Shown here: positions 1,698 through 22,138 of the stretch, piece by piece
Layout: every line of letters begins with the position of its first letter
Numbering within the stretch: the first letter of the stretch is position 1
Assembly (NCBI GenBank): GCA_964490075.1
Contig: CAZBBK010000019.1
Location: forward strand, 1 to 64,000
Origin: an uncultured Gemmatimonadota bacterium
GTDB taxonomy: Bacteria; GCA-2686955
Direction: 5' to 3'
Length of the DNA stretch: 64,000 nt
The notes under the pieces: model-generated
Told to the model about the DNA's origin: nothing
What the model saw: only the letters and a program-made list of their open reading frames with translations
Database searches by the model: none
Made by a program: the position numbers and the translations under genes

Positions 1698-2703
1698 GCG
1701 GCTGAACGATCCGGAATATTTCGACGAGCTGGGCGCCGCCACGGCAACGCCCGAGCCGGCCGGCGCCCCTTGCTACGGCGTCGCCGATCCCCTGGCCGGG
1801 CTCTTGCCGGAGGATCTGCCGGCGCCGGCGCGCAAGCCGCGCCACCGCCTGCTGCGCTACCTGCGCGAAGAGATCATGCCGCACACTTTCTGTGTCGGCT
1901 GCGGCGGCGGCACGGTGCTCAACACCTTCTCGTGCGCGATCGACGAGATGGGAATCGACCCGCGCGAGATCGTGGCGGTGACCGGCATCGGCTGCTCGTC
2001 GTGGATTCCCAGCCCCTACTTTCACTGCGACACTTTGCACACCACCCACGGCCGGGCGGTGGCCTTCGCGCACGGCGTGAAGGTGATGAAGCCGGAGATG
2101 AAGGTGATCATCATCGCCGGCGACGGCGACCTGGCGGGGATCGGCGGCAACCACCTGATCCATGCCGCGCGGCGCAACATCGACATCACGGTTTTTCTGG
2201 TCAACAACTTCATCTACGGCATGACCGGCGGCCAGGTGTCGCCGACCACACCCTTCGGCATCCGCACCACCACCACGCCCTACAGCAACGTGGAACACCC
2301 TTTCAAGATCGCCGAGCTGGTGGTGGCGGCGGGGGCGAATTATGTCGCCCGATGGACCACCTATCACGCCTTTCAGCTCATGGAGTCGATGCAGAACGCG
2401 ATTCGCAAGAAGGGCTTCACCTTCGTCGAGATCATGAGTCAGTGCCCGGTCAGCTACGGCAAGGCATCGGGTCTGCACGACGCGGTGTCGGCGCTGCATC
2501 ACTTCCGCGAGCAGTCCATCGAGGTCGAGAACACGGCCGGAATGTGCGAAGAGGAGCTCGAAGGAAAATATGTCGTCGGCAAGTTGATCGAAAGAAATCG
2601 CAGCGAGTTCACCGCTGGGCTGCGCCGCGTGAACCGCGAGCGGCGACAAGTTCTGGAAGAGCAGCTCGGCGTGGCTGCGCCGGAGCAGGGGGCGCGGGGA
2701 TGA
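1687..2703 (+). CDS. korB: 2-oxoacid:ferredoxin oxidoreductase beta (TPP-binding) subunit (copy 1)
   Basis: FCVGCG, GIGCSS, HTTHGRA, GDGD...NN, YGMTGGQ, SQCP. Confidence 0.93.
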   Translation: MALERLNDPEYFDELGAATATPEPAGAPCYGVADPLAGLLPEDLPAPARKPRHRLLRYLREEIMPHTFCVGCGGGTVLNTFSCAIDEMGIDPREIVAVTGIGCSSWIPSPYFHCDTLHTTHGRAVAFAHGVKVMKPEMKVIIIAGDGDLAGIGGNHLIHAARRNIDITVFLVNNFIYGMTGGQVSPTTPFGIRTTTTPYSNVEHPFKIAELVVAAGANYVARWTTYHAFQLMESMQNAIRKKGFTFVEIMSQCPVSYGKASGLHDAVSALHHFREQSIEVENTAGMCEEELEGKYVVGKLIERNRSEFTAGLRRVNRERRQVLEEQLGVAAPEQGARG

Positions 2704-3784: not shown

Positions 3785-4975
3785 GTGGCGACAGAATTCG
3801 ACTATCAGCGGGTGATGACAGCGCTGGGCGAGCGCGAGCAATTCGCCCAGGGCGATGTGGCCTGCGCCTACGGGGCACTCTTGGGTGGCTGCGACTTTTT
3901 CGCGGGCTATCCGATCACGCCGGCGACCGAGGTGGCTGAGGCGATGGCGCGGCTGCTGCCGAAAATCGGCGGAACCTGCATCCAGATGGAGGACGAGATC
4001 GCGTCGATCTCGGCGATCATCGGGGCGTCGTGGGTCGGGCGCCGCACCCTGACCGCGACCAGCGGCCCCGGTTTCTCGCTGATGCAGGAGAACATCGGCT
4101 ACGCCTTCATGACCGAGACGCCCTGCGTGATCATCGACGTCCAGCGCTCCGGTCCGTCCACCGGTCAACCGACCGAGCCGGCCCAGGGCGACATGCTGCA
4201 GGCTCGCTGGGGGACCCACGGCGACCACGAGATCATCGCCCTGGCCCCGGCCTCGGTGCAGGAGTGCGTCGATCTGACCCGCGCCGCCTTCGACCTCTCG
4301 GAGCGCTACCGCACGCCGGTGCTGGTGATGACCGACGGCGAGGTGGGGCACATGCGCGAGAAGATCGTGCTGCCGGCGGCGGGCGAGGTGGCGCTGGTGG
4401 AGCGGGACCAACCAGCCGGCGGACCGGAGACGCACGTGCCCTTCCAGGCGGTGCGGGGCCAGGTCCCGGAGATGGCGCGCTTCGGCACCGGCTACCACAC
4501 TTACGTGACCGGTTTGACCCACGACGAGCGCGGGCTGCCCTCGACCGACGACGCGCGGACCCACAGCCGCCTGATCGAGCGGCTCTGCGCCAAAGTGAGC
4601 GAGGCGACCGAGGAGCTGACGCGGGTCGAGCAAGATCTCCAGGAGGGGGCCGAGGTCGCCATCGTCTCCTACGGCATCTCGGCGCGCTCGGCGCAGGGCG
4701 CGGTGCAGGAGCTGCGGGCGCGGGGGGTGCGGGTGAGCCATCTGCGCTTGATCACGGTGTTCCCCTTCCCCGAGGCGGTGGTGGCGGAGCTGGCCGCGGG
4801 GGTCGAGCGCATCGTCGTGCCGGAGCTCAACCTGGGGCAGATCTGCCACAGCGTGCGCGAGGCGGTCGGCGGAGCGGCGGCGGTGGAGCGCGTTTCCAAG
4901 ATCGGCGGCGAGATCATCACCCCGAGCGAGATCGTGCGCGCGGTGACCGAAGGCGGCCGGCCGGTCCGGGTCTAG
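3785..4975 (+). CDS. korA: 2-oxoacid:acceptor oxidoreductase alpha subunit (copy 2)
   Basis: GYPITPATE, EDEIAS, TSGPGFSL, QRSGPSTG, PELNLGQ. Confidence 0.93.
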   Translation: MATEFDYQRVMTALGEREQFAQGDVACAYGALLGGCDFFAGYPITPATEVAEAMARLLPKIGGTCIQMEDEIASISAIIGASWVGRRTLTATSGPGFSLMQENIGYAFMTETPCVIIDVQRSGPSTGQPTEPAQGDMLQARWGTHGDHEIIALAPASVQECVDLTRAAFDLSERYRTPVLVMTDGEVGHMREKIVLPAAGEVALVERDQPAGGPETHVPFQAVRGQVPEMARFGTGYHTYVTGLTHDERGLPSTDDARTHSRLIERLCAKVSEATEELTRVEQDLQEGAEVAIVSYGISARSAQGAVQELRARGVRVSHLRLITVFPFPEAVVAELAAGVERIVVPELNLGQICHSVREAVGGAAAVERVSKIGGEIITPSEIVRAVTEGGRPVRV

Positions 4976-5002
4976 GACCGGCGGCGAGCGGGAGAGCGAG
5001 AC

Positions 5003-5851
5003 ATGTTCAATCAGGCCGAGAAGATCTCATCGAGCTACCTGCGCGAGGCGATGTGGCCGTCGATCTTTTGCACCGGCTGCGGGATCGGCAACGTCCTCAA
5101 CTACACCCTGAGGGCGATCGACGCCTGTGCGCTCGACATCGACAAGGTCGCGTTCTGCTCCGGGATCGGCTGCTCGTCGCGGCTGCCGGGCTACATCGAC
5201 GCCGACGGCCTGCACACCACCCACGGGCGCGCCATCGCCTTCGCCACCGGGGTGAAGCTGGCCGATCCCGAGCTGACCGTGGTGGTGTTCACCGGCGACG
5301 GCGACATGGCCGGCATCGGCGGCAACCACTTCATCCACGCCGCCCGCCGCAACCTCGACCTGACGGTGATCTGCGTCAACAACTTCAACTACGGCATGAC
5401 CGGGGGCCAGGTCTCCCCGACCACGCCGGTCGACGCCACCACCACCACCACGCCCTACGGCAACATAGAGCAGCCCTTCGACCTGTGCCGCCTGGCGATC
5501 GGAGCCGGAGCGCCCTTCGTGGCGCGCTGGACGGTCGGCTACCCCTACGAGACCATCCAGACCCTGGAAGCGGCGTTGCGCCACAAGGGTTTTTCGTTCG
5601 TGGAGCTCTTGAATCCCTGCCCCACCGGCTACGGCAAGGGCAACGAGCTGCGCGACGCGACCAAGGCCTGGGCCTGGTACAAGGAGAACTCGATCACGCG
5701 CACCGAGCTGGCTCAGCTCGACCCGGAGGAGCGCGCGGCCAACCGCAAGATCGTGATCGGCAACTTGTGGGACGAGCCGAAGCCGGAGTACTCAGAGCGC
5801 TGGGAGAGCTTCGTGGGGGGCGTGGGGGGCGGGGATCACACCAAGCGGTGA
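5003..5851 (+). CDS. korB: 2-oxoacid:ferredoxin oxidoreductase beta subunit (copy 2)
   Basis: FCTGCG, GIGCSSR, HTTHGRA, GDGD, YGMTGGQ, PCP. Confidence 0.93.
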   Translation: MFNQAEKISSSYLREAMWPSIFCTGCGIGNVLNYTLRAIDACALDIDKVAFCSGIGCSSRLPGYIDADGLHTTHGRAIAFATGVKLADPELTVVVFTGDGDMAGIGGNHFIHAARRNLDLTVICVNNFNYGMTGGQVSPTTPVDATTTTTPYGNIEQPFDLCRLAIGAGAPFVARWTVGYPYETIQTLEAALRHKGFSFVELLNPCPTGYGKGNELRDATKAWAWYKENSITRTELAQLDPEERAANRKIVIGNLWDEPKPEYSERWESFVGGVGGGDHTKR

Positions 5852-7122
5852 TCGGCGTCGGCGGGGCGTACCGGCCAGGACGAACGCGCGGCGAGATCCG
5901 GCAGGTCGAGCGGTGCGGGCGGATCCCAGAAGATCACGTGGCGATCGTCGCTGCCGCGGGAGATGAAGCCCAGGTTGCGGTAGACGGCCGACGCTGTCTC
6001 GTCCTCCGGGTCGCGGGAGGAGATCGCCTCGACGCCGGCGGCGCGAGCCTCTTGCAGCAGCCCTCTGAGCACCCCCGAGAGCGCGTCTGAGTCGCCGCGT
6101 CGCACCAGCAGGTCAGAGATCTCCCAGCGCCGGGTGCCGCGCGGGCCGACGATGGTCTCGACGACGGCGTAGCCGAGCGGCTCGCTGTTCTCCACCAGGA
6201 AGATCTTGTAGCGCGCTTGTGGGCAGTCGGCGAAGCGCCAGTTCAGGTAGTCGGTGCTGCGCTCCAGGATCAGCGGGTAGCTGTCCATGACCTGGTCGAG
6301 CCAGGGATCGAGGGCGCGCGGCAGGCGGGTGAGGCGGCGGCAGCGGATGGCCCGCGGCAGCCGGGTCCAGGCGCGGTCGGCGAGCTGGAGCGAGGCGCTG
6401 GCCAGACCCGAGAGCAGGCGCGAGGCCACGATGCCTTGCAGGTTGAGCAGCCGCACGCGCGGGGTGGGGACCGGCCAGTAGAGGAAGACCGGTCGGCAGC
6501 CGAGCTCCGGCGGTGGACCGAAGGGCACCGGGTCGAAGCTCTGGTCCGAGTCGAAGCTCCAGTAGTCGTTGCCCCGGAACCACTTCTTGTAGAGGGTGAT
6601 GGCGTCGGAGACCTGGCCCCACATGGGCACGGGCCAGCGGCGCATGGTCTGCCAGAGCTTCACCACGCTGCCCTGGCTCTCCGGGTGGGCAGAGAGGGCG
6701 CCCGAGAGGTAGATGCGCCACGGTCGACCGCGCACTCGGAAGGTCTGCGGCAGGCAGATCTGGATCGACTCCACGCGGCCTTTGCGGACCCGCGCCGGTA
6801 CCACCATCTCTTCCCAGTCGGCGCAGCGATGCGGGTTGGCGTTCATCAGCCAGTCCCAGCGTTGTCGCAGGGACTTGGCCTCGGCGCTGCCCCAGACCAG
6901 TTCGTGGAGCTCGAAGAGCTGCGGCAGCTCGGGCGGCTTCAGAAAGCGGTAGCCGCGATCCTCGAAGACATCCGGATAGGGAACGATGCCGGGCAGCGGC
7001 GCCTCGAAGGGATCGGACCACGTCTTCCAGACCTCGGAGGGGCATCGGTGCCCCGGCACGTTGAGCTTGGCGCGAGGCGCCGCCGCGCCGCGACTGTCTC
7101 CGTGCGCTGCATCGGTCGTCAT
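5836..7122 (-). CDS. GNAT-fold (tandem acetyltransferase-like) protein
   Basis: WDWLMNANP, LSAHPE.QG, RSTDYLNWRF, GYAV, YRNLGF; start at MTTD (7122) is uncertain. Confidence 0.55.
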   Translation of the reverse strand: MTTDAAHGDSRGAAAPRAKLNVPGHRCPSEVWKTWSDPFEAPLPGIVPYPDVFEDRGYRFLKPPELPQLFELHELVWGSAEAKSLRQRWDWLMNANPHRCADWEEMVVPARVRKGRVESIQICLPQTFRVRGRPWRIYLSGALSAHPESQGSVVKLWQTMRRWPVPMWGQVSDAITLYKKWFRGNDYWSFDSDQSFDPVPFGPPPELGCRPVFLYWPVPTPRVRLLNLQGIVASRLLSGLASASLQLADRAWTRLPRAIRCRRLTRLPRALDPWLDQVMDSYPLILERSTDYLNWRFADCPQARYKIFLVENSEPLGYAVVETIVGPRGTRRWEISDLLVRRGDSDALSGVLRGLLQEARAAGVEAISSRDPEDETASAVYRNLGFISRGSDDRHVIFWDPPAPLDLPDLAARSSWPVRPADADHRLV

Positions 7123-7342: not shown

Positions 7343-8740
7343 ATGACGCCTCCATTCTCCCCCCGCGCCCTCGTTTTCTGGGCGACCGCCCTGGCCGGCG
7401 GCAGCGCCGCGGCCGAGGTTCGGCGGGTTCCGGAGGACCACGTGACCATTCAGGAGGCCATCGAAGCGTCGCATTCCGGCGACCTGGTCTCGATCGCCGC
7501 GCGGGAAGAACCCTACGTCGAAGCGCTCCATATCTCAAGCGCCGCCGGCCTCGATACCCTCACTCTCGAGTCGCGCGCGAGCGTCGATCCGGCCGCGATC
7601 GTCGCCCCTGCGGGGGCCAGGGCCGTGGTCGAGGTGGACGCCGAAATGCGGGGAATCAGTCTGACGCTGCGCGGTCTCGATCTGCGCAACCACAATCCGC
7701 GCATCAATCCGCCCGGCAGGATCGACGGCGAGGCAGCCGCCGAACTATGTCTCTACGGGCTGCGGATTCGCACCAGCCGCTCAGCGGACGCCGAGCAGGC
7801 GCTCTACACTTGCGCCCTCAGGATGGAAGATTCGCGAATCTCCTCTTCCGACTTCGGGATCGGCATCGGTTGGTGGCGGCGAATCTACTTCGACCAGGTC
7901 GATGCTCCGCAGGCGAAGCTCGAGGTGACGCTGCGCGGCAACACGATCGAGGGACTCAGCGACGACGACAACGACGGCATCGCGCTGTGGGGTGCGGCCT
8001 CTGGAGAGATCTCCGGCAACATCGTCGAGGGCTTCGGAGAGGGGGTCCATACCAGCGCCGCCGGACACGCGCCGGCCGGGCTGTCGGTGCACAACAACGT
8101 GTTCTTTCACGGCCGCTCGAGCGCCTTCCACGTGGCGCATCACGCCGGCCTCGTGGTCGTCAGCAACAACATCTTCTCGGGTCCGCGAGCGTGCTCCGAG
8201 ATCGATCTCTCGGCGCTCGATTCTCTCGACTCGCTCGAGGCGCCGCGCTGGATCTGTCCGCCGCGACCCTTCTCCGACGGTTTGACCTGCACCGGTGCCG
8301 ATACCCTGGTCGTCACCAACAACCTGTTCGTCGCCAATCACGGCGACGCGCTGCGGATCGAGCGCGCGCGCTACCCGGGCGTCACTGTGCTGGCCGTTCA
8401 TGGCAACATCTTTTACAAGAACAACCCCCTGCACCTGGACAAGTACGACATCTTGATCGAACGCGACGGGTTCTGGAATCACCGCCTCAAGGTAGATCTA
8501 GGTCACAACAGTTTTTGGGGGAACCGCGGCAACCAGCGGATCTGCAACGCGCCCGAGCTCATCCGCGCATCGAACCAGCTGCGCGATCCCGGCTTCCACG
8601 GCTGTTGGACACCCGGCGACACGCTCCTGGTCGACGCCGGCTGGCCGCATCCGGAGCTCAACGACTGCGACCAGTCGCGCAACGATATCGGCATCTACGG
8701 GGGACCACGGGGTGGCTGGTCCCCCGCTTGGTGTGAGTGA
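7343..8740 (+). CDS. Secreted right-handed beta-helix protein
   Basis: Signal peptide, RVPEDHVTIQEAI, NN/GN beta-helix rungs, C-terminal VDAG...RNDIGIYGG motif. Confidence 0.75.
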   Translation: MTPPFSPRALVFWATALAGGSAAAEVRRVPEDHVTIQEAIEASHSGDLVSIAAREEPYVEALHISSAAGLDTLTLESRASVDPAAIVAPAGARAVVEVDAEMRGISLTLRGLDLRNHNPRINPPGRIDGEAAAELCLYGLRIRTSRSADAEQALYTCALRMEDSRISSSDFGIGIGWWRRIYFDQVDAPQAKLEVTLRGNTIEGLSDDDNDGIALWGAASGEISGNIVEGFGEGVHTSAAGHAPAGLSVHNNVFFHGRSSAFHVAHHAGLVVVSNNIFSGPRACSEIDLSALDSLDSLEAPRWICPPRPFSDGLTCTGADTLVVTNNLFVANHGDALRIERARYPGVTVLAVHGNIFYKNNPLHLDKYDILIERDGFWNHRLKVDLGHNSFWGNRGNQRICNAPELIRASNQLRDPGFHGCWTPGDTLLVDAGWPHPELNDCDQSRNDIGIYGGPRGGWSPAWCE

Positions 8741-10944: not shown

Positions 10945-13005
10945 ATGAGCGACAACCGCAGCATGGGAGCATCGGGACTGATCAAGCGTCTGGCGGCGCG
11001 GCGCAAACGCGGATCCACACCTCCCAGCTTCCCCTTGCCGGCACTCGGCACTCTGCTCGCCGACCGCTTTCGGCTCGAGCAGAGGTTCTTCACCAGCCCG
11101 CTCTGGTCGACCTTCGCGGCGACCGACCTGGAGCGGGAGCTGCTGCAGGTTACGGCGCACGTCTTCCACTACGACCGGATCGGCGACCGGAAGGCGCGCG
11201 AGCGGGGGCGTGAGGCCCTGGCGCGCGACTGTGCAAAGGCGATCGAGCTCGACCACGAGAACCTGGTGACCACCCTCCAGCACGGGCGGCAGGAGGGGCT
11301 CGAGTTCCTGGTGACCGAGCGGGTGCGCGGTCGCCCCCTGTCCCACGTGCTCGGCAAGCTGGCGACCGGGAGGGTGGCGGTGAACCGAGCTGTGAAGTTG
11401 CTCTTCCAGCTCCTGCGGGGACTCGAGCACGCCCACGCACGCGGCGCGGTGCACGGCTGCGTCGACCTGGAGAACACGCTGCTGCTGGGCGCCGACCAGA
11501 TCAAGCTGGCGGGTTTCGGGATGCGGGCGCTGATCGACCCGGAGGACGAGCTGCGCGGAGTGATCGAGCGCCGTTTCGCCTGCACCAGTCCCGAGACGAT
11601 TCGTGGCGATCTTCCCAGCCCAGAGAGCGACGTCTACTCCGCGGCGGCCATCCTCTATGCCCTGATCGACGGTTCTCCGCCCTTCGGCGATGTCGGGCGC
11701 GAGGCGCGTCTCGGTCACCAGATGTTCCAGCTGCCGCTTTCGACCCACATCCCGCCGGAGCTCTTCGCGGTCATCGAGAAAGGCATGGGCAAGGATCCGC
11801 GCGTCCGTTTCGAGGGAGCCGGCGCGCTGCGGGTGGCGCTGGCGGCCGCGGCGGGGGTCGAGACCGAGTCGCCGGAGCCGGTGGCGGTCGCCGAGCTCGA
11901 CCGGGTCGCCGACGAAGAGGACGCGATCTCGACGCCGAGCATTCAGGTGATCCCCGAGCTGTCCGACGAGACGATCGTCGCGGCGGCCGTGGCGCCGCCG
12001 GCACCGAGCACGGTGGATGGAACCGAAGCGGTGGATGGGGCTGCGCGGGTGGACGGGGCTGCGCCCGCGGAGGAAGCGGAGCCGATGGCAGAGGCCGAGG
12101 CGGTGGTCGAGATCGAGATGGTGGATGCAGTCGAGCCGACGCAAGAGCTCGAGCCCTTCGACGAAGCCGCGCCTGCCGAAGAGCCCGAGCCGGTGGTCGA
12201 GATCGAGCCGATGGCTGCGGCAGAGCCGGCGCCCGAGCCGGCGCCGATCGAAGAGCCCGAGCCCGTCGAATCGCCGGATCCGGTGGTCGAGATCGAGCCG
12301 ACGGAGGTCGTCGAGCCAGTCGTCGAGCCGATCGCCGAGTCCGCTCCGGTCGACGAAGTCGATCCCGCGCCAGCGCCCGCGCCGCTGGACGAAGCCGAGC
12401 TCACCGAGCGGATCGAGCCGGCTCCGGAGGCAGCGCCCGAGGACCGGGACCAGCCGCTCGAGACGGTCGAGCTGGCCTACGAGATCGAAACAGCGGAGTT
12501 CGCAGAGGCGGCGCCGGAGGCGGATTCGATCGCCGAGGTCGAGACTCCCGGCGACTCCGAGCCGCCGCAACCCATCCCCAGCGCCGTGCCGGACGAGATC
12601 GCTGCGCTTGCGCCCGAGCCGGACGCGGTGGAGCCGGCCGCATTCGCGCGCTTCCTCGAAACCCTGGCGAAGGCGCGCGGTGTGAGCGGAGCGGCCATAG
12701 TCGACGAGGGGGGCCGGATCATCCAGGTCCGGGGCGAGGCCGAAAACGCCGCCGCCCTTGGAGCCGCCGCGCGGGGCATCGCGCGCTCCGCGGCGATCGC
12801 CGCGCGCGAGGTCGAACAGGCCGCGACCAAGCTGATCCTGCTGGAGAACGAGGAAGGGATCGTGGTGCTGGTGCCTCTGCCACGCGGCTTCGTGTTGACG
12901 ATCCTCGCCGACAGCCCCGGGGTGCTCGGCCTGGTGCGCTTCGAGACCAAGAAGATGCTATCGGAGCTGCGCGTCGTGATCGAGAGGCGACCAGCCTATT
13001 CCTAG
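10945..13005 (+). CDS. Hanks-type kinase-fold protein with catalytic motifs lost, acidic linker and C-terminal Roadblock/LC7 (MglB-like) domain
   Basis: LDHENLV, FLVTE, SPE..G, SDVYS, G.PPF; Glu/Pro-rich linker; GVSGAAIVDEGG...LILLENEEG...LGLVRF. Confidence 0.75.
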   Translation: MSDNRSMGASGLIKRLAARRKRGSTPPSFPLPALGTLLADRFRLEQRFFTSPLWSTFAATDLERELLQVTAHVFHYDRIGDRKARERGREALARDCAKAIELDHENLVTTLQHGRQEGLEFLVTERVRGRPLSHVLGKLATGRVAVNRAVKLLFQLLRGLEHAHARGAVHGCVDLENTLLLGADQIKLAGFGMRALIDPEDELRGVIERRFACTSPETIRGDLPSPESDVYSAAAILYALIDGSPPFGDVGREARLGHQMFQLPLSTHIPPELFAVIEKGMGKDPRVRFEGAGALRVALAAAAGVETESPEPVAVAELDRVADEEDAISTPSIQVIPELSDETIVAAAVAPPAPSTVDGTEAVDGAARVDGAAPAEEAEPMAEAEAVVEIEMVDAVEPTQELEPFDEAAPAEEPEPVVEIEPMAAAEPAPEPAPIEEPEPVESPDPVVEIEPTEVVEPVVEPIAESAPVDEVDPAPAPAPLDEAELTERIEPAPEAAPEDRDQPLETVELAYEIETAEFAEAAPEADSIAEVETPGDSEPPQPIPSAVPDEIAALAPEPDAVEPAAFARFLETLAKARGVSGAAIVDEGGRIIQVRGEAENAAALGAAARGIARSAAIAAREVEQAATKLILLENEEGIVVLVPLPRGFVLTILADSPGVLGLVRFETKKMLSELRVVIERRPAYS
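12101..12297 (+). repeat. Intragenic repeat CGGTGGTCGAGATCGAG (VVEIE) x3 at exact 90-bp period
   Basis: Copies start at 12101, 12191 and 12281. Confidence 0.8.
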
Positions 13006-13084
13006 ACCTCTTCCTCGGGCGACCCGCTCGAAACCTCCGTGCCGCACCGTCATCCGGCCGTGATCGCGGCCAGGTGGAACCCCG

Positions 13085-14029
13085 TCAGTAGCCAACATCC
13101 TCCGCCACCACGATGGTCTTGGCCGGCACGTCATCGCTCCACAAGCCCATGTCGCGCACCTCAGGGCCTCCGCCGAGCACGTACTCGCAGTCCGTGCCGT
13201 AGAAGGCGCAGGAGAAGGCCGCGTCGGTCGGCTTCCAATAGCCGAACCAGTCGATGGCGTCGAGCCGCCCGCTGGTCGTCACGGCGACATGGTTGGAGAG
13301 GAGCGCAGGGGAGCCGTGATCGTGCGAGCGCACCAGAAGCGCGTTGCGGGACTCGCGCGGGATCTGCGGCGTGTTTTCCCAGGCACGCCTCACCACCCCC
13401 TCCGCGCCGGGATCGCCTGGAGCGGTCTCGGCGATGACCAGAGCGAGCAGGGTCTGGGGATCGATCTCCCCGAGGTCGTCCAGGGGCATGTGGGGGTAGG
13501 CCAGCGAGCCGCAGCCCGCCCCGTCGTGCAACACGATCGCCCGAGGGATGGGCAGGCCCTCGGCTTCCACTCGATTGGCGATGCGCAGGCTGAGGATGCC
13601 GCCCAGGGAGTGACCGGAGACGGCAAAACGCTCCAGCTCCGGGTCCACGTGTCCGGCCCCGGAGAGCACGTCCAGGGCGTCGCGCAGAGCGTAGATGGCG
13701 TTGTCCTCGTAGTGACTGGCGCCCCACCACCAACCGTAGCGCGGGTAGACCACCGTCATTCCGTGGCGGGCGAAGTGCCGGAGCATGGCGTCGTAGGGGT
13801 CGGGGTCGAGCGCGCCGTAGCCGTGCAGGTAGAGAAGCACCGGAGCCGTGTCGGGGGTGGGCTCGGCGGGCTCGAAGAGCCAGTAGCGCTTGGTGTTGCT
13901 CAGATGGGCGCTGACCGCGACCCGGGAGTGGGTGTAGTCGCTCCCGCCGGGTCCCACGGCGGGTTGTTCGGGCGGAGTCTGGCCGAGAGCCAGCAGGGCG
14001 AGACAGATCATCATGATGCGGTGCTCCAC
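13085..14029 (-). CDS. Secreted alpha/beta hydrolase (chlorophyllase/cutinase-like)
   Basis: LYLHGYG, GHSLGG nucleophile elbow, signal peptide. Confidence 0.8.
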   Translation of the reverse strand: MEHRIMMICLALLALGQTPPEQPAVGPGGSDYTHSRVAVSAHLSNTKRYWLFEPAEPTPDTAPVLLYLHGYGALDPDPYDAMLRHFARHGMTVVYPRYGWWWGASHYEDNAIYALRDALDVLSGAGHVDPELERFAVSGHSLGGILSLRIANRVEAEGLPIPRAIVLHDGAGCGSLAYPHMPLDDLGEIDPQTLLALVIAETAPGDPGAEGVVRRAWENTPQIPRESRNALLVRSHDHGSPALLSNHVAVTTSGRLDAIDWFGYWKPTDAAFSCAFYGTDCEYVLGGGPEVRDMGLWSDDVPAKTIVVAEDVGY

Positions 14030-14077
14030 GAGAGGTGGCGGTTGACTGCTCAGTTCGGGGAAAGGGCGGTTGGCCGC

Positions 14078-15475
14078 CTAGGGCATCACCGGTAGATCGC
14101 CAAAAGCCAGCATCCCCACGCCGCGGCTGTTGCTGACCCAGGGTCCGTCGCGCGAATGGCCGCCGTAGGAGAGGGTCTCGGCCGGCCCATCCAGCTCGAG
14201 CAGCAGCGTCGCTCCCTCCGCTCGACCGCCCACGACCTCGGCACCGCTGTCGGTCCAGAAGTCGTTCTCGGCCCCCTCGTCCCAGTGCACGGAGCGCACC
14301 GATGGGTCGAACTCGATGCGCACCTGGTTGGGAGCGGCCCAGGTGATCGTCCGGGGATCGAGAGGTTCGACGTCTTGCAGAGCGGCGCCGTAGAGATCGC
14401 GCGCCAGGAGCGCCGCCATTCGCTTTCCCAGGGTGGCGTAGCCGTCGTAGTAGAAATGGCAGCCATCGTGACAGGGCAGCGCCGTCGCGGTCTGCAGCGC
14501 GACCTTGGGCAGAGTCTCGGGGAGGCGCCGATGCACTTCGCGGATCGGCAGACCCTCGGCGGGAGAGAAGCCGCAGCCGGACCGGATCTGCACCACGTAG
14601 ACCTTTTCCAGCGCCGGGAAATCCTCGATCCAGTCCTCGTAGAGCGCGTGGAAGCTCTCGCGATAGGTCTGGGGATTGCGCCCCTGATTCGATTCGCCCT
14701 GATACCAGATCAGGGCCCGGGCGGCGTCCGCCAGGCCGGCGCGGCGCGCGCGATAGAGCAGCCGCCCGTAGTTGGTGGAGAGCCGCTCGGGATCGTCGTC
14801 GTCGCGCTGGTGCCAACCGATCCAGGTGCCACCGACCGCTCCGTTCAGGATCGCCACCGGCACGCCGCCCCGGTCCACCAGCTCTTGCGCCATGCGCAAC
14901 GCCCAGGCGCCGATGGTCCCGGATCCGTTGGCGTCGAGACCCTCGGCCAGATACCAGCGGGTGTCGTCCCGCACCGCGGGAGGGGAGAGCGACGCGCTGC
15001 CGTAGGAACGGATCCAGCGCCGTTGTGCGTCGTTGGCGAGCCCCTCGTTGTGCGCGTCCGCGGCGACGGCATTGGACTGGCCTTGCACCAGGTAGGCATC
15101 CCCGCACAGAACCTGGACTCGCTGGCCGACCCAGGTCTCCTCTCCTCTGGCGGCCAGGAGCAGCTCGAAACGGTAGACATGGTGCCCGGCGATCAGCTCG
15201 GAGCGAGCCTCGAAGGGCGCACCCTCGGGGCCGTATTGCAGCGGCAGATCGAGCTCGAAATAGAGAGTCTCGTTCTGATAGCCGCGCAGGATGATGCGCT
15301 CGAAGCCCTCTTCGGTCACCCGGCCGCGGGCGGCGACGAATCCGGTGCCTCCCTGGTCGCGCGCAAAGAGCTGGCCGTTGGAGGGCACCTCCTCGAAGAC
15401 CACGATCGGCTCGGCGGCCAGGGGAGGTGCCGCGAGCACCAGGAGGAGCGCGGGCAGGAAGGAGTAGGGGCGCAT
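14078..15475 (-). CDS. Sialate O-acetylesterase (SASA/SGNH) domain protein
   Basis: VQGQSNA, AVGGT, WYQGESN, DGCHF; signal peptide from MRPYSF (15475). Confidence 0.85.
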   Translation of the reverse strand: MRPYSFLPALLLVLAAPPLAAEPIVVFEEVPSNGQLFARDQGGTGFVAARGRVTEEGFERIILRGYQNETLYFELDLPLQYGPEGAPFEARSELIAGHHVYRFELLLAARGEETWVGQRVQVLCGDAYLVQGQSNAVAADAHNEGLANDAQRRWIRSYGSASLSPPAVRDDTRWYLAEGLDANGSGTIGAWALRMAQELVDRGGVPVAILNGAVGGTWIGWHQRDDDDPERLSTNYGRLLYRARRAGLADAARALIWYQGESNQGRNPQTYRESFHALYEDWIEDFPALEKVYVVQIRSGCGFSPAEGLPIREVHRRLPETLPKVALQTATALPCHDGCHFYYDGYATLGKRMAALLARDLYGAALQDVEPLDPRTITWAAPNQVRIEFDPSVRSVHWDEGAENDFWTDSGAEVVGGRAEGATLLLELDGPAETLSYGGHSRDGPWVSNSRGVGMLAFGDLPVMP

Positions 15476-15545
15476 CGGGGCTCCCACGTGAAGGGTGTCG
15501 GTGTGGGATCGATTCCGAGTTAGGTCTCGGCGCTTCACACCGTCA

Positions 15546-15607
15546 GGGTAACGGCCCGTGCGTATGCTGCGGCGCGTAGCGCCGCCAGCATCACGCTCTC
15601 GTTGGGC
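15546..15607 (-). mobile_element. Integron attC-like recombination site (solitary in this window)
   Basis: Minus strand GCCCAAC-GAGAG-CGTGATGC-TGGCGGCGCTACGCGCCGCA-GCATACG-CACGGGCC-GTTACCC: R'', 5-nt spacer, 8-bp L'', stem-loop, 7-bp L', GTT core, two extrahelical bases. Confidence 0.7.
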
Positions 15608-15694
15608 AACTCGGTTGATCGCCCTCGTTGTTCTCGCTCTGCTCTGGCTCCAGAGGAGCGGAGGATCTTGCGGACTTGAAGAGGGCTTGCAGGT

Positions 15695-17284
15695 TCACCA
15701 TGCGTGCGGTCGCTCCGCCATCAGGGGAAACGTATCGTGGGTCGTCAAGAGCCAGCGGTCGAGTTCGATCCCTGTTCCGCTGACGCGAATATCGAGCTCA
15801 TGGATACCTTGCTTCAGGTCGCGATGGCCGGCGCTGTACCAGAGCCACCGACCAGGAGAATCGGCGGTGGCTCCAGCTCCTTCAAGAGGAACCCCGTCCA
15901 TGGTCGCTACCGGCCAGGCACTAGAAGCTTGGCTACGGTGAAGCCTGATCCAAAGAGTGTACTCGCGCCAGACCGGGACTTCGGTTCGGTAGCAGAGGAA
16001 TCTCTGCCTCCGCGCCCCAATCGCTCCGGGCGCACCATCCGTGGGTGCGAATGACTCAATGTTGGCAGACGAGGAAGACTGCGGAGAAGCCTCCGTCGGA
16101 TGGTGCACAAGTCCATCGGGTCGGAGGATTCGATGCCCCCAAGCGGACGTGTCTGGGCGAGAGACCCAGCCTCGCTTCTCGTTGGCCGATTCCACCTCGC
16201 GATAGATGTCTTTGTGATACGCTCCAGTGTGCCAGTTGTCGTACATCCAAGTAGCGCATTCGATGCGCTGATGGTCGTAGATGCCCGGAGTGTCGAAAAC
16301 GTAGATGTTGCCATCGTCTGAGCCGAAGACGATATCGGTGTCGCCGTCTTCATCCAAGTCGGTGATGGTACCGCTGCCCCAGTTGCTGCTATTGCCCCCA
16401 CGTGGCCAGCTCTCTACGACGGTTCCGTCGAACTCCAGTGCCCAAATATCAGGCTCTGAACCTCCGATAAACGCTTCCAACATGGAATCGCCATCTAGGT
16501 CTGCTATAGCTACCTGAGTATCGATCTCCCGAAGGCCGGTCCATGGAAAATTCGGCAGCAGGTTGCCTTGCCTGTCATAGGCCAAGCTCCACTTCCAAGA
16601 CGCTGCCCACAGGCCATCGACTTGGCCGTTCCGATCGACGTCAAAGGCGGCTGGCATGGCCACGGCGATGCCTCCGTAAACCGCCGGCCAACCCGGCACC
16701 ACGTCGCCTTCCCAATCGTACACGTGAATACCGCCGTTGTCATGATCGGCAACTACGATCTCAGGATGCGGATCTCCGGCAAGGTCCACGAGTGACGGCG
16801 GGACGAGGACCGTCTGACTGGGGACTTTCGAGAAGAACGGACCGTCCGCGTATCTGGTCCCATCGTGATGATAAACGTAGATCCATCCATTACCCCAATA
16901 GCCGACATAGGTCACGACAATGATCTCATGATCGCCATCTAGGTCCAAGTCTCCTACCGCAGCACCTGTTCCACTACTCCGAGCAAGTTGGAGCGGCCAT
17001 CCCGTCTTGTATCTTCCCCTGTGATCAAGGACCCGCACCTCCGTAAAGTCGGTCTCCGGTGGATCGTCCGAAGCCACACTAAGAACCTCCATCTTGCCAT
17101 TCCCGTCCAGATCCATCAGCGTTGTGCTGGAGTACCTCCTCCAGCGCGCCCGGACGGGCCATTGCCCGGGTATCTCGGACCCATCAAAGCCGACAACGTG
17201 AATGCGTTCGTCGTTGCCTCCAGCCAACAGTTCTACAAAGACTATCTCCAATGTGCCATCGTTGTCCACGTCCGCGCCGCTCAC
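15695..17284 (-). CDS. FG-GAP/VCBS-repeat protein with C-terminal beta-sandwich, probably 5'-truncated
   Basis: Repeats DVDNDG, DLDGNG, DLDLDG, DLDGD, DLDEDG followed by GWP; starts inside a repeat with no signal peptide. Confidence 0.7.
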   Translation of the reverse strand: MSGADVDNDGTLEIVFVELLAGGNDERIHVVGFDGSEIPGQWPVRARWRRYSSTTLMDLDGNGKMEVLSVASDDPPETDFTEVRVLDHRGRYKTGWPLQLARSSGTGAAVGDLDLDGDHEIIVVTYVGYWGNGWIYVYHHDGTRYADGPFFSKVPSQTVLVPPSLVDLAGDPHPEIVVADHDNGGIHVYDWEGDVVPGWPAVYGGIAVAMPAAFDVDRNGQVDGLWAASWKWSLAYDRQGNLLPNFPWTGLREIDTQVAIADLDGDSMLEAFIGGSEPDIWALEFDGTVVESWPRGGNSSNWGSGTITDLDEDGDTDIVFGSDDGNIYVFDTPGIYDHQRIECATWMYDNWHTGAYHKDIYREVESANEKRGWVSRPDTSAWGHRILRPDGLVHHPTEASPQSSSSANIESFAPTDGAPGAIGARRQRFLCYRTEVPVWREYTLWIRLHRSQASSAWPVATMDGVPLEGAGATADSPGRWLWYSAGHRDLKQGIHELDIRVSGTGIELDRWLLTTHDTFPLMAERPHAW

Positions 17285-18744
17285 TGGATGTTGTTCCGAA
17301 TTGCGCCATGCGACCCGTGCGCGAGATGGAACCCATTCTGGTCGTTACAGTCGAACCGATTGTGTTCAACAGTGATCTGTTGGTAGGCCTCAGGGATGAC
17401 CTCACCATTGCCGTTGTGGAAGTTCGCGAAGCTGAGATGGAATCCTTCGTTGCCTCGAGAAGAGAGCAGGTTGCCAGCGACGCGGCCCACAAACACCCAG
17501 GCAGTAATAGCGTCGAGATAGGTCGAGATGCGGTTGTTAGTTATCTCGCCCCACTTGATCGATTGCTTGATGAGTTCATCCGGTCGAGGAGGCGGGTCAG
17601 TCTGCCAGTCCTTGCCGATGTAGAGGCCAAAGCCAGCGTTCAGCCACTCCCCATCCTCGTCTTGGAGACCGGCAAAGATAACATTATTGTGGATGAAGAG
17701 GCCTGTATTCATGGTCTTGTTGGGGTCGTCGTGAGAGGCTTTCACGTCGATTGTGCGCTTTCCCCTTCCAAGCAGAGTTAGGTCGCGGATAGTGACCTTC
17801 ATGTCGGTACATCTAACATGATCCCTGTTGTTGATCTCAAGGAGTCCTTTCTTTGGTGTCGTTGGCTTCACGACAAGAACAGGAGAGTCATCGGATGCGG
17901 CGGTGAACAGCGCCACCACGAACTCCTCGGTGCTTCTTGGTGCGAGAACAATGGTGTCCTCGATGTATGGGTTGCGGGATTGCCGTATGAGCACTACATA
18001 GCCGCGCGCAGTGCCGGGCCTACTGTTCGCTTCAGCGATCGCTTCGTTCACGGTGCAGTAGACGTGAGGGTCCAGACAGTGGTCCTGATCGACGATGAAG
18101 AGAGGCACCGGCAACGGAGGCTCTGAGTCACGGGCAAGAGGCGAGAGAATCGGCGTCGAGGAGAGGCTCGACTCGGTGCCTCCGAGAGGGCACATCACGA
18201 CCGCCTGCATGCCTGCCGGGAGCGTATGCGGTCTGAGCAGCCGGGCGTCATCAACCGACCAATGCACGCGACCTGGTTGGCTTGCGGCGAATCGTGCGCT
18301 GATCTCCAATCGCAGATCGACGTAGGGTGGCCAGGGATCACCGAGGTAGACCCGGACCTGGGGGCAGATCATCACCATCCGCGATGTGCTCTCGGTGTGG
18401 TCGACGCCTACATAGGGCTGAATCAGTACACGAACGTGATCGGAATTCTGGGCGAATGAGGTACGGCGCTGTCCGTCCCAGAGATCGACCAGCCACGTCG
18501 GGTAGATGCTGTAGTCGGTGATATGCGGAAAGGTCCCGGGAACCTCGGTGCGCACTGATACCAAGCGAATTGACCCCTGAGCGGACCTTGCGACTTCGAC
18601 CATCGTCTTTCCGTCGCTCAGGCGCCAGAGATCCTGGCGAGTAGCTCGCACGACGGCCTTAGTGGCGTGAGGCTCCCAACGCGCTGGCGCCTGCGCGCCA
18701 AGACCAACGGAGAGAACGATCAATGCAAGTCTTCGAATCCACAT
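17281..18744 (-). pseudogene. Secreted beta-helix protein, 3'-truncated
   Basis: Signal peptide MWIRRLALIV; CTVNEAI; stops mid-rung (IRNNIQ*) where the homologue at 7343 continues (VSNNIFSG...). Confidence 0.55.
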
Positions 18745-18870
18745 GGCTAGCCTGCGGCATGAGAGCCTGTGGGCGCGTCGCCAGGCAAACAGCGGGGAGC
18801 ATGGAATCTCTAGATCCCAGTCTAAGCCGCTCCCTCGCCACCCGGAAGCGCCTATCTTCACGCCAGGTAT

Positions 18871-19338
18871 CTACTCCCGGCAAACCGCACTGATCGCGAA
18901 GGTCACGAACTGCGACGGCGTGTCCGTCTCGAAGAGCACGCTCCAACGCACGTGTCGCAGCAGCGGGACCTCAGCCTCCGTGCGGACATCGCTGTAGAAG
19001 ACCAGAGGCGTCGCGTTTACGCCTTGGACGAAGCGAGCTTCACCGACCGTACGCCAGTCGCTGCGCTCGATGGCTGTGTTGGTTTGGAGCAGCACCTTCA
19101 CCGATGCGGCAGCATCCAGTCGAGCGTTCTCGACGATCAGCTTGAGGTGGCATTGGCGAAACGCGAGCAGATCCCACACATCGACGGCCGGCTGATCATG
19201 GCTGGCGTCGGAACGAGTGACGGTCACGGAGGCCTGTTCAAATGCCTCGCCAGCGGCGATCGCCGGGTCGGTTGGGATGGGCACCGCCGCGAGCAGGGCA
19301 CCGGGCACGAGGGTTCCCACGAGCGAATTTGCACGCAT
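18871..19338 (-). CDS. Hypothetical secreted all-beta protein (paralog 1)
   Basis: Signal-like N-terminus; LQTN...DW.TV...VPL.R..RW.V.FE....Q.VTF...RE* shared with the next ORF. Confidence 0.7.
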   Translation of the reverse strand: MRANSLVGTLVPGALLAAVPIPTDPAIAAGEAFEQASVTVTRSDASHDQPAVDVWDLLAFRQCHLKLIVENARLDAAASVKVLLQTNTAIERSDWRTVGEARFVQGVNATPLVFYSDVRTEAEVPLLRHVRWSVLFETDTPSQFVTFAISAVCRE

Positions 19339-19415
19339 GACATGACTCCAGACTGGGGGAAGTACGCGGTCCTTCTGAGAGGACCATCAAGAAACCGGGA
19401 ACAGCAGATCGCCTT

Positions 19416-19712
19416 CTACTCGCGAGCAACTCCCACGACCGAGAACGTCACATGTTGGCTCGCCGTGCTGCTCTCAAACTCCACCTCCCATCGGGCAAAC
19501 CTCGACAGCGGCACCGTGTCCTCAATCGACGCAAGGCCATAAGCCACGTAGGGGGTCGTCTGGCTGCCCTCAGTAAAGGTAACGTTCGTCACGGTCTTCC
19601 AATCTGGCTCGTCCAGCGTCGCATTGGTCTGCAAATTCACTCGTACATACTTGTTCGAGTCGAGCGATACGGCGGTGATCTTGAATTTCAAAATGAGCCA
19701 CCGGTAGGGGAG
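19416..19712 (-). pseudogene. 5'-truncated paralog of 18871..19338
   Basis: Aligns from LPYRW to VARE*; the upstream part of the track ORF is the antisense of the LVIVD gene. Confidence 0.6.
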
Positions 19713-21302
19713 CGAAGATTCGAGGGGGCCCATACATCGAGCCCTACGTCGTGGGTGTCGCATCGGCAGGGGAATATGCGTATGCCGCGGCAGGACCGGG
19801 GGGGCTGCAAGTAGTTGATGTCTCGAATGCGGATTCACTCACGCTGCGCGGTCGAACGGAGGCGCTCAACGCCCGCGATGTCGTCGTGGACGGGAGCTAC
19901 GCCTACGTCACAGCCGACCGGTTGGCGTTTGTTGTGACGGATATCTCGAATCCATCTTCCCCCCTTCGGCGAGGGGCGGTCGGGCTGCCGGGTGCGGCTC
20001 GACGGCTCTCACTGAAAGGACAATAAGTCTACGTGGCGGGCGATCATGTTGGACTGCACGTCATCGACGTCACCGGCGTCGACAACGCTCAGCGATACGG
20101 GGCGGTCGACACACCGGCAAGGGGCGTGGACATTGCCGCAGCGGGCGATTATGCATACGTCGCCGACGGCTGGCAGGGGCTCCAGGTGCTGGAGGTCTCC
20201 GATCCAGCCTCGCCCGTGATCTGCGCCCGCGTCGAGGCCATTCGGGATTCCGCCGTCGCGGTGGCCACGTCGGGCAATCACGCATTCGTCGCCTCGGCGG
20301 TGCTCTGGCGCTTTGGCGAGGGCGAGCTGTGCGTGGTAGATGTCTCCCAGCCCGCGTCGCCGGTGATCTTGGCGACGGTGCCAACTCCGGGTACTTCGAA
20401 CGAACTCGCCCTTGGTGCGAGTCACATATATGTCGCGGACTCGGGAGTGGGCTGCAGATAGTGGACGCCTCCGATCCAAGCGCGCCGATGCCGTGCGGAA
20501 ATGTCGTCACGCCGGGCAAGGCCGCCGGGGTGGCCGTGGCGGAGCCTTAGGCGTACGTTGCAGACACCGAGGGCGGCTTGATGGTGGTGGACGTCTCGGA
20601 TCCCTTCATGTCGATCATTCTCGGTGCCGTGGACACGCCGGGTAGAGCCCAACGGGTTTGTGTCGCGGAGAGCTTCGCCTACGTGTCGAGTTGGGACGAT
20701 GGCCTGGCGATCGTGGACGTCTCGACCCCGGCGGAGCCCGCGATGCGCGGACACGCGCGGACGCGATACGGCGCCGGTGATGTCGAAGTGGAGGAGAGCT
20801 ACGGCTACCTCACGACGCACCGATCAGGTCTGCAAGTGGTAGACATCTCGAATCCGGACTCACCCTTGAATAGTGGGTCGGTGGCATGTTGCAGCTGGGG
20901 GGCGGGCAGGGCGTCGTTTCTGCCGGTTTCGTATATGTCGCTTGCGGTTCTGGCGGCGTGGTCGTGGTGAGACAACAATGCCTCAAGACTCTTGTCGAGC
21001 GCACGCCGGCACCGCCGGCGCCCTGCGCGGACGATCTGGGCCAGAATCACCCCAACCCATTCAATCCCAGGACGGCGATCCCTCTCATTCTGCAGGAAGA
21101 TGGAGCGGTGGAGCTGCGGATCTACGACGCCGCGGGCAAACTGGTGCGAACCCTGGTCGACGGGCAGCGCCGAGCAGGGCGGCACCAGGTGGCGTGGACG
21201 GGTCGGTCGGAATCGGGGCGCGCGCTGCCCTCAGGGCTCTATCTTGTTCGTTTGCGAACGGCGCGCGGCGACGAGATTCGGGGGATGATCCTGCTCGAGT
21301 AA
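19712..21302 (+). pseudogene. LVIVD-repeat protein with C-terminal FlgD-Ig/T9SS-sorting-like domain, disrupted
   Basis: Repeated YAYVA..GLxVVDVSxP; in-frame TAA 20024-26 and TAG 20548-50; frameshifts near 20445 and 20890; tail QNHPNPFNP...IYDAAGKLVRTL...LPSGLYLVRL. Confidence 0.8.
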
Positions 21303-21315
21303 GAAGGAGGCGAGA

Positions 21316-22138
21316 ATGCACGCACGATCGATCGTGGGCGTCCTTGCCCTCACGGCGCGGGTGGGCGTTGCAGACGACACATTTCCCGTCTGGCAGCGCC
21401 TGGGCCCGGACGGTGGACCGGGATCGGACCGTTTCGCGGTCGCCCCCGCATCAGGGGATCGACTGGATACCCAGCTCCGATCACAGCGACGGGGAACAGG
21501 CATGGGTCTTCCCGTCCCGGCAAGACCCGACCCGGCCCTTCGAGCTGGTGGCGGGGTGGGCGTGGGAGTTGAACCGCTTGCTCTGGGTGAACCTCGGGCC
21601 GATCAGTCCGGGATTAGGGTGGAGCTTGGTGGAGGAGTACGGGGACCCCTCCTGCGTTCTCTCCACGAGCGTGCTCACGCCGACGGAGCTTCTCCCCACT
21701 AGACTGGGACCGGCCGGTATCTACGTAGACGGAGAGTTGAAGGTGGTATGTGAAGACCATGGCACCGAGGAGTACTGGGAGCCGGTGGAGACCTGGAAGG
21801 CGATCGAGCAGGGGGGGGTGCCGCCACTCACGGGTCTCGAGGTGCGGGCGCTTGGCTCGGCGCCCGACGTTCCCGACCGATACTGGGGCTTGGCGGAGCG
21901 CCCCTACACCCGTCTCATCGAGCACCGTTCCGGCTGGCAGGCCTGGAGGGTGGTGTCGGTCGGAGGACTGCTCGAGGCCGCCGACGACATTGCCGTTCTG
22001 GCCGGGTCCGAGGGCGCCGCGCTGGTCCTCGTGGGCAACGAGGGGCCGTGGCTCTCACGCGACGGAGGCGAGAGCTGGCGGGCCCGGTGGCCCGGCGCCT
22101 TCGGGCGCCTATCTTGTCGGCGTGCGGACCGCATCTAG
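21316..22138 (+). pseudogene. Fragmented secreted BNR/Asp-box propeller protein
   Basis: GGAGG RBS, signal-like start, WQRLGPDGG; continues in another frame to LSRDGGESW, then stops. Confidence 0.45.

Follow-up and report, generated by a model that had tools for sequence, protein, structure and literature searches.

A solitary attC-type site beside a low-GC gene block in an uncultured Gemmatimonadota genome

The site and its immediate surroundings

Integrons recombine their gene cassettes at sites called attC, and a single site of this type is found in a stretch of 64,000 nucleotides (here called the window) from an uncultured marine bacterium of the phylum Gemmatimonadota, namely positions 1 to 64,000 of contig CAZBBK010000019.1 in GenBank assembly GCA_964490075.1. 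The site occupies 62 nt of the minus strand (15546..15607), between a gene for an FG-GAP repeat protein and a gene for a SASA-family carbohydrate esterase, and it was recognized with two covariance models and a log-odds model. It is very probably a true homolog of the attC sites of integrons. One strand of an attC site folds into an imperfect hairpin, and the integron integrase, IntI, reads the unpaired bases and the spacers of that hairpin. IntI cuts inside an AAC/GTT triplet and exchanges a single strand with the partner site.

Along the minus strand the site has the order R''-L''...L'-R'. The R'' box, GCCCAAC (15601..15607), matches the consensus RYYYAAC and is separated by 5 nt (15596..15600) from the L'' arm (15585..15595), in which folding places 3 bp (15595-15593), an unpaired G at 15592, 6 bp (15591-15586) and a second unpaired G at 15585. 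An inner stem of 6 bp with a loop of 3 nt follows (15570..15584), and the L' arm, the partner of L'', is assigned to 15561..15569 by folding and by the alignment to covariance model R1 (see below). A spacer of 8 nt (15553..15560) leads to the R' box, GTTACCC (15546..15552), where the crossover presumably falls between G 15552 and T 15551 and where the later bases depart from the consensus RRRY. Folded as single-stranded DNA, the hairpin has a free energy of -22.4 kcal/mol (z = -3.4), and only one of 200 shuffled sequences was equally stable. The bulged 16-bp stem forms on either strand; the plus strand of the window is the "bottom" strand of the attC, that is, the one presumed to fold and recombine. 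An earlier note on this DNA had described attC geometry on the minus strand, and all the parts that it described are present, with the covariance models and a decoy scan (see below) in agreement.

The R'' box begins 87 nt past the stop codon of the FG-GAP gene (15697-15695), on the same strand, and the R' box ends 70 nt ahead of the ATG of the SASA gene (15475, minus strand). The attC is oriented as one would expect of a site that closes the upstream genes at their 3' end. The intergenic sequence that contains it is present once in the genome and is not a member of a repeat family. An open reading frame (ORF) of 36 codons (15591..15701, minus strand) indeed stops in the L'' arm, as had been noticed: its TGA lies within L'', and it overlaps the stop codon of the FG-GAP gene in another frame. 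It is without a Pfam match, nothing else speaks for a gene, and it is probably non-coding. A cassette composed of the attC alone, with a GTT immediately before R'', can be set aside, since the resulting GTTGCCC departs from RRRY and does not pair with R''. A permissive Rfam search of 14500-17000 gave five matches, all far under their gathering scores and none of them to an attC family; the one that overlaps the site is to a trypanosome snoRNA model (17.5 bits versus a gathering score of 40). Finally, a scan for consensus terminators and promoters over 13000-20000 returned four terminator-like and two promoter-like sites, none at the attC.

Comparison with real attC sites

How can a lone attC be told from a chance hairpin in a GC-rich genome? 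The integrase of the bacterium's own genome served as query to collect 80 loci with IntI relatives of 48-64% identity, to which plasmid records were added. Two class 1 plasmid arrays served to validate a simple heuristic attC scanner, which detected arrays of cassettes, with 139 sites altogether, in 14 of 81 loci; it also recovered the true arrays of loci L020-L022. Two covariance models were then available. R1 (alignment A1) is based on 20 attC sites of about 56-72 nt, from five integrase-linked arrays and one class 1 plasmid array, while R2 (alignment A2, produced by the model itself) is based on 129 sites from 16 loci that were picked by R1 at E <= 0.001. The training of both models was free of any sequence from the studied genome. 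Both were built for this analysis and are distinct from the attC model of IntegronFinder, and their E-values are rough.

Searched against the window, R1 matched the site over its full length with 29.3 bits (E = 1.8e-4; runner-up, 12.7 bits), and R2 did the same with 32.7 bits (E = 1.4e-5; runner-up, 9.4 bits). The covariance-model check that had been proposed for the site therefore gave significant scores, and the site is the only match in the window with either model. On the other strand at the same place, R1 gave at most 1.5 bits. Real attC sites from nine loci outside the R1 training scored about 15-52 bits with R1, and by its covariance score the site takes a lower-middle place among the real ones. 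When R2 was run on another 396,304 bases of this GC-rich genome, the top match reached 14.6 bits and only three matches had E <= 10, which shows that the E-values do not overstate significance here. Both models were also applied to the surroundings of integrases and FG-GAP paralogs in the phylum (76 and 117 kb), with a single weak match. A search of the bacterium's own genome with R1 scored 150 of 14,123 first-look candidates and did not return the window's own site, and so it is not genome-wide; the heuristic scanner gave 160 loose matches in the genome and no array-like cluster.

The whole genome was covered with a fixed-geometry log-odds model, in which the column and pair frequencies of alignment A2 are weighed against the genome's base composition. 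All 5.7 Mb were scanned on both strands, as was the reversed genome, a decoy that keeps both hairpins and composition. The site scored 39.3 bits, near the 10th percentile of the training sites, while the next real match reached 15.4 bits and the best decoy 15.9 bits; at 10 bits or more there were seven real matches and nine decoy matches. The gaps in the covariance-model, genome-wide and decoy scores, together with the single copy in the genome, show that this is not a chance hairpin: its resemblance to attC goes beyond what such a hairpin has.

The likeness extends to individual positions. The AAC of R'', found in 127-129 of the 129 real sites, is present here, as are two features common to all 129, the GTT of R' and the T:A pair at the third L-box position (T15:A). 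The bulge layout (3 bp, bulge, 6 bp, bulge) falls in the same columns as in the real sites. The unpaired G residues had been listed earlier as a deviation, a view that the comparison overturns: of the 129 real sites, 89 have G as the first extrahelical base and 30 as the second, which is A in 93. The left spacer has its usual 5 nt, and other conserved details are kept as well, namely the G:C pair that closes the 6-bp segment, the C ahead of GTT and the A after it.

The R' box is where the site parts from the real ones. Instead of the RRRY of the motif GTTRRRY, the GTT is followed by ACCC, which was seen in none of the 129 real sites, and yet the 16 stem pairs are all intact and the three mismatches of the R box are confined to the part 3' of the crossover. 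An off-consensus ACCC next to an otherwise intact site is the picture to be expected from a crossover with a non-att target at G|TT rather than from uniform decay, and the mismatch in R' would follow if the bases after G derive from a non-att partner. This agrees with the earlier proposal that the bases responsible for the mismatch between GTTACCC and GCCCAAC came from the target. Moreover, the terminal attC keeps a canonical R' (GTTAGGC, GTTAGAT) in the two arrays whose end is visible, which weakly favors a non-att target over the remnant of an array.

The arrays of the closest IntI relatives, on a plasmid of Gemmatirosa kalamazoonensis (L020) and in metagenome-assembled genomes (MAGs; L028 and L076), share with the site a 7-nt R'', a 5-nt spacer, and the succession of 3 bp, bulge, 6 bp, bulge and stem. 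The attC sites of L028 are 62-64 nt long, against 62 nt here, and the covariance score of the site lies within the range of the related arrays. Unlike the sites in those arrays, the one described here is solitary, has a non-canonical R' after GTT and a right spacer of 8 nt rather than 6, and carries T:A in place of A:T at one conserved pair.

Gene block, integrases and edges

Upstream of the attC, on the same strand, is a block of four ORFs with low GC content, 3.2-4.1 kb long depending on whether two to four genes are counted. The last gene before the attC encodes the FG-GAP repeat protein (15695..17284; 529 aa; Pfam FG-GAP_3, 61.7 bits), with a GC content at third codon positions (GC3) of 0.64. 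It is preceded by a gene for a 526-aa protein with no Pfam family (17281..18861), which is a conserved partner upstream of FG-GAP paralogs, and by a gene for a 155-aa protein with a signal-peptide-like N-terminus (18871..19338). The fourth ORF (19416..19712) is a 5'-truncated tandem paralog of the 155-aa gene that matches its residues 58-155, with the first 57 missing; relatives of these tandem paralogs (18871-19712, minus strand) were seen only in two genomes of the same family, G002 and G003. On the other side of the attC, the SASA gene (14078..15475, minus strand; Pfam SASA, 62.5 bits) has native composition, with a GC3 of 0.85. The drop in GC content that had been noted to the right of the site was confirmed: GC3 is 0.64-0.68 in the two large genes of the block and 0.64-0.76 over the block genes, versus 0.85-0.88 in the SASA gene, the adjacent hydrolase gene and a kinase gene. 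In addition, 1-kb segments at 16-18 kb have a GC content of 0.55-0.58, under the first percentile of the genome (0.598, n = 5641 segments).

The genes of the block have many relatives. The FG-GAP protein matches 27 stretches in its own genome, several per paralog, and together with the 526-aa protein it forms a multi-copy two-gene module that is found in all five genomes of the phylum examined, at about 35-45% identity; the block genes are a divergent copy of this module. Other copies occur at at least five loci of the same genome (contigs C79, C80, C4, C15 and C11) and also in genomes G002-G004, and the GC content of the copies spans 0.58 to 0.71. No attC was found at the other FG-GAP module copies examined. 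The closest FG-GAP paralog (C25:19123-20106) is of low GC content and has an internal deletion. Its homology to the window ends at the stop codon, and the hairpin downstream scores at most 6.8 bits with R1. The region behind it (C25:20107-20260, or L108:4107-4260) contains TTGCCCAA followed by a plain 8-bp hairpin, at a distance from the stop codon about equal to that of R'' in the window. No model match was obtained in this 3' flank, and the arrangement is either due to chance or a wholly decayed site.

Is there an integrase that could have acted on the site? The statement that the window has none holds, and none of the genome's seven TIGR02249 matches lies on the contig of the window; the genome itself, however, has intI genes elsewhere. 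Contig C60 carries one at 1051-1986 (minus strand), with 415.5 bits to TIGR02249 against a cut-off of 265. Its translation has readable His-x-x-Arg and Tyr catalytic motifs and a stretch that we take to be IntI-specific, with 57% identity to the IntI of the Gemmatirosa plasmid and 47% to IntI1, and judging from its sequence the gene is apparently intact. It lies about 1 kb from the contig end (locus L008, C60:397-2109), and its frame stays open for some 215 codons, rich in Pro, Gly and Arg, past the usual C-terminus of IntI. No attC was found in the 1 kb downstream of it. A second intI on contig C25 (3695-4734, minus strand) is split over two frames, with no counterpart to the central part of the model. 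Altogether, intI genes above the cut-off are present in three of the five phylum genomes examined, mostly less than 1 kb from a contig end. Of the 14 loci with related integrases and arrays, 13 have the array on the downstream side of an intI in the same orientation. The array-bearing loci (L020, L028-L105) belong to MAGs of many phyla, and only L105 has the classical divergent layout. Cury et al. (bioRxiv 10.1101/030866) mention such a downstream array with co-oriented intI as an "inverted integrase" layout. An array so placed next to the C60 integrase would extend past the end of the contig.

The broken intI on C25 opens what looks like a decaying integron (locus L009, C25:3695-10778). It is followed by a low-GC stretch of about 3 kb with genes for an Mrr-type restriction endonuclease (4815-5789) and an HNH_2 nuclease (5822-6829), and then by a weak attC-like site on the plus strand (7718-7815; 22.0 bits with R1 and 18.9 with R2) with a canonical GTTAGGC and a damaged R''. 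Past that site lie the hsdM and hsdS genes of a type I restriction-modification system. The locus looks like a defense-gene cassette beside a dead integrase. With its broken intI, low-GC gene pair and weak attC-like site, it is a parallel from the same genome to the site described here.

At the far edge of the low-GC block (19712..19722) is a breakpoint with no GTT that truncates the genes on both sides, such that the truncated small gene abuts a 5'-truncated gene on the opposite strand. The latter is the remnant of an LVIVD-repeat gene (19722..21560, plus strand), characterized by three-frame translation: the 5' end of this beta-propeller sequence is missing, its reading is interrupted by at least two in-frame stops and two changes of frame, and its tail resembles what we take to be a secretion sorting domain. 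Four motifs were considered and rejected as a 5' cassette junction. GTTGAAC (17364-17370) and GTTAGAT (17811-17817) lie inside the 526-aa gene, the C-terminus of which is shared with paralogs, and GTTGAGC (19864-19870, complementary to R'' at six of seven positions) and GTTGGGC (20647-20653) fall within uninterrupted LVIVD repeat units.

The stretch is present in four runs of one marine study, whose contigs were compared with the window. Two samples besides the probable source have contigs that bridge the junction between attC and SASA gene (15380-15613 and 15445-15922), and two samples besides the probable source likewise have contigs across the far edge (19571-19955 and 19646-20536), all with zero differences; in the probable source run, 13000-18623 lie within one contig. 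The arrangement is therefore real. One contig of run X4, of depth 3, joins 14642 to 17651 with three other letters between them, and thereby skips the start of the SASA gene, the attC and the FG-GAP gene. Its ends do not suit an attC crossover, and it may be a paralog or a chimeric contig. Relatives were sought through neighboring genes. The SASA protein had matches in two of 41 genomes (its own and a fragment of 37 residues), and none of 47 candidates among metagenome contigs was confirmed; for the FG-GAP protein one of 458 metagenome candidates was confirmed, at 25% identity. Orthologs of the abhydrolase (64-65% identity) in G002 and G003, two members of the family, have no neighbors in common with the window.

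Origin of the site

IntI-type recombination is the likely origin of the site. As a best explanation we propose that it is a lone genuine attC, a single attC lacking integron-integrase (SALIN), whose history includes insertion at a non-att target, and we regard this proposal as evenly poised. The window has a single attC with an associated coding sequence (CDS) and no other att site in the searches with R1 and R2, and its contig has no intI, the genome's intI genes being on C60 and C25 rather than here, so that the site does not belong to a complete integron. Loot et al. (bioRxiv 10.1101/2022.09.11.507474) count 3400 SALINs in 2469 of 21,105 complete genomes, and the experiments that they describe show IntI inserting attC-bearing DNA at genomic 5'-GWT-3' sites (attG). 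Like their SALINs, the site described here consists of one attC with a correctly oriented CDS and no integrase or second att site near it. It also resembles their products of attC x attG recombination, in that the G|TT of the right junction (15552/15551) fits GWT and the bases past the crossover are off the attC consensus. It differs from their SALINs in having a multi-gene block of 3.2-4.1 kb in place of a one-gene cassette, in lacking the 5' junction G|TTRRRY, in a host with an intI of its own on another contig, and in having no empty site at hand. Clusters of at least two attC sites without integrase (CALIN), as defined by Cury et al. (bioRxiv 10.1101/030866), are related in that they too have attC without adjacent intI and possibly reflect integron decay; here there is one site, not a cluster of at least two within 4 kb.

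The proposed history would run as follows. The low-GC block, or at least its last two genes, would have carried the attC as an integron cassette. IntI would then have joined this cassette to a G|TT that is not an att site and lies 70 nt ahead of the SASA gene; recombination at G|TT implies that the TTACCC after the G is target DNA. A later deletion at about 19.7 kb would have taken away the other junction. The hairpin may today also serve as terminator or 3' stabilizer of the four-gene operon. Taken separately, arrival of the site by non-att insertion, as opposed to its being left over from an array, falls a little short of an even chance in our judgment.

A number of observations weigh against this explanation. 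The left junction of an attC x attG product, a target G joined to TTRRRY, is missing: all four same-strand GTTRRRY motifs upstream lie in conserved coding sequence, and no 5' cassette junction was found among them. The far edge is an illegitimate, non-GTT breakpoint, and for this reason a later deletion has to be assumed. Neither an empty site nor a relative with the same locus turned up among the genomes and metagenome contigs searched, where usable relatives are lacking, and the search of relatives for an empty site upstream of the SASA gene that the earlier note had called for thus came back without one; the contigs of the four runs likewise show only the occupied arrangement, although contigs drop rare variants. 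The assembly holds no sister attC of comparable score (log-odds scan), so that of the integrase and sister sites to be looked for only intI genes came to light. No attC arrays stand beside any assembled intI of the phylum (five genomes, searched with the scanner, R1 and R2). The idea of a foreign island survives for composition only, as the presence of the multi-copy module in all five phylum genomes means that the block genes are not foreign to the lineage. Some features of the site itself are uncommon: the pair at model position 18 is T:A instead of the usual A:T (T:A in only 3 of 129 real sites), and an R box with four of seven pairs is shared by 7 of 129. The right spacer, of 8 nt versus the usual 6, had been called a deviation; such a length is rare but does occur, in about 5% of weighted real sites. 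To our knowledge, a block of 3.2-4.1 kb with two to four genes exceeds the usual cassettes. Single attC matches are, finally, the class with the highest risk of false positives according to Cury et al. (bioRxiv 10.1101/030866).

Delivery by IntI to a secondary site, as first suggested, is accordingly borne out in its likely IntI origin and its G|TT right junction, and lacks a 5' junction and an empty site. The companion suggestion, that several kilobases moved as one large cassette, found no support: all four GTTRRRY motifs are in coding sequence, and the far edge is a non-GTT breakpoint. The DNA that came with the site may have measured 4.1 kb, 3.2 kb or less, and movement of the whole 4.1 kb as one cassette seems unlikely. 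A shade less likely still is the more general idea that integrons of this sparsely sampled marine phylum move multi-gene "giant cassettes", with the 3.2-4.1 kb block (two small secreted proteins, the 526-aa protein and the FG-GAP protein) carried by one attC to a non-att site and the Mrr/HNH stretch on C25 as a second example.

The main alternative to a lone attC inserted at a non-att target is that a local integron once stood here. The site would then have closed, as its last attC, an array that the deletion at about 19.7 kb deprived of integrase, attI and remaining cassettes, with no insertion at a secondary site. The upstream edge of the block is deletion-like and lies precisely where a co-oriented intI and attI would sit, given the layout seen in 13 of 14 related loci with arrays; the same genome has another decaying integron on C25; and edge attC sites without an R' box are reported by Cury et al. 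(bioRxiv 10.1101/030866). Against this history speak the ACCC in R' (0 of 129 real sites) and, weakly, the canonical terminal R' at both visible array ends. Furthermore, no intI fragment is present on the contig (none of the seven genome matches), and R1 and R2 find no second attC in the window, not even a decayed one. We consider such a remnant somewhat unlikely, though deserving of serious attention.

Could the hairpin instead be an ordinary GC-rich terminator, or a 3'-stabilizing structure of the four-gene operon, that resembles attC by chance? Intrinsic terminator hairpins of GC-rich bacteria have a stable GC-rich stem after the last gene of an operon. The site is like them in its position, 87 nt past the last stop codon of co-directional genes and ahead of the next gene, and in its stable GC-rich stem of 16 bp. 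Isolated attC calls are false positives at 0.03-0.72 per Mb in the estimates of Cury et al. (bioRxiv 10.1101/030866), and very many windows were screened at the first stage. Unlike a terminator, however, it has no T-run and left the terminator scan silent, and it carries bulges and sequence invariants specific to attC for which a terminator has no need. Its score, moreover, is 17-23 bits above all else, whether in the window, the additional 0.4 Mb, the whole genome or the decoy made by reversing it. This explanation is improbable. A misjoin of a cassette-array contig to the chromosome at a repeat, which a draft genome of 136 contigs, a shift in composition at the site and integrase genes at contig ends might bring to mind, is scarcely credible and largely refuted, since contigs of other samples bridge both junctions with zero differences, one contig of the probable source run spans 13000-18623, and the site is unique in the assembly.

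A lone attC with a proposed non-att insertion history is an example of a kind already known, as is this route of gene acquisition; what sets this one apart is the phylum of the host, how large the associated block is and what it contains, and an apparently intact intI that the genome carries at another place. For annotation, the case teaches that a lone attC and a chance hairpin can be separated, but that this takes an in-genome decoy beyond an E-value. For the phylum, of which five genomes were examined, it documents integron activity with an integrase, an integron in decay and an attC left stranded. It would also add a natural case to those known for a route, described only recently, that takes cassettes out of integrons to new places in genomes. 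If the whole block did move, cassettes can be far larger, with more genes, than is usually assumed. And if giant cassettes are indeed mobilized in these bacteria, integron recombination would help to spread the lineage's multi-copy module of secreted FG-GAP proteins.

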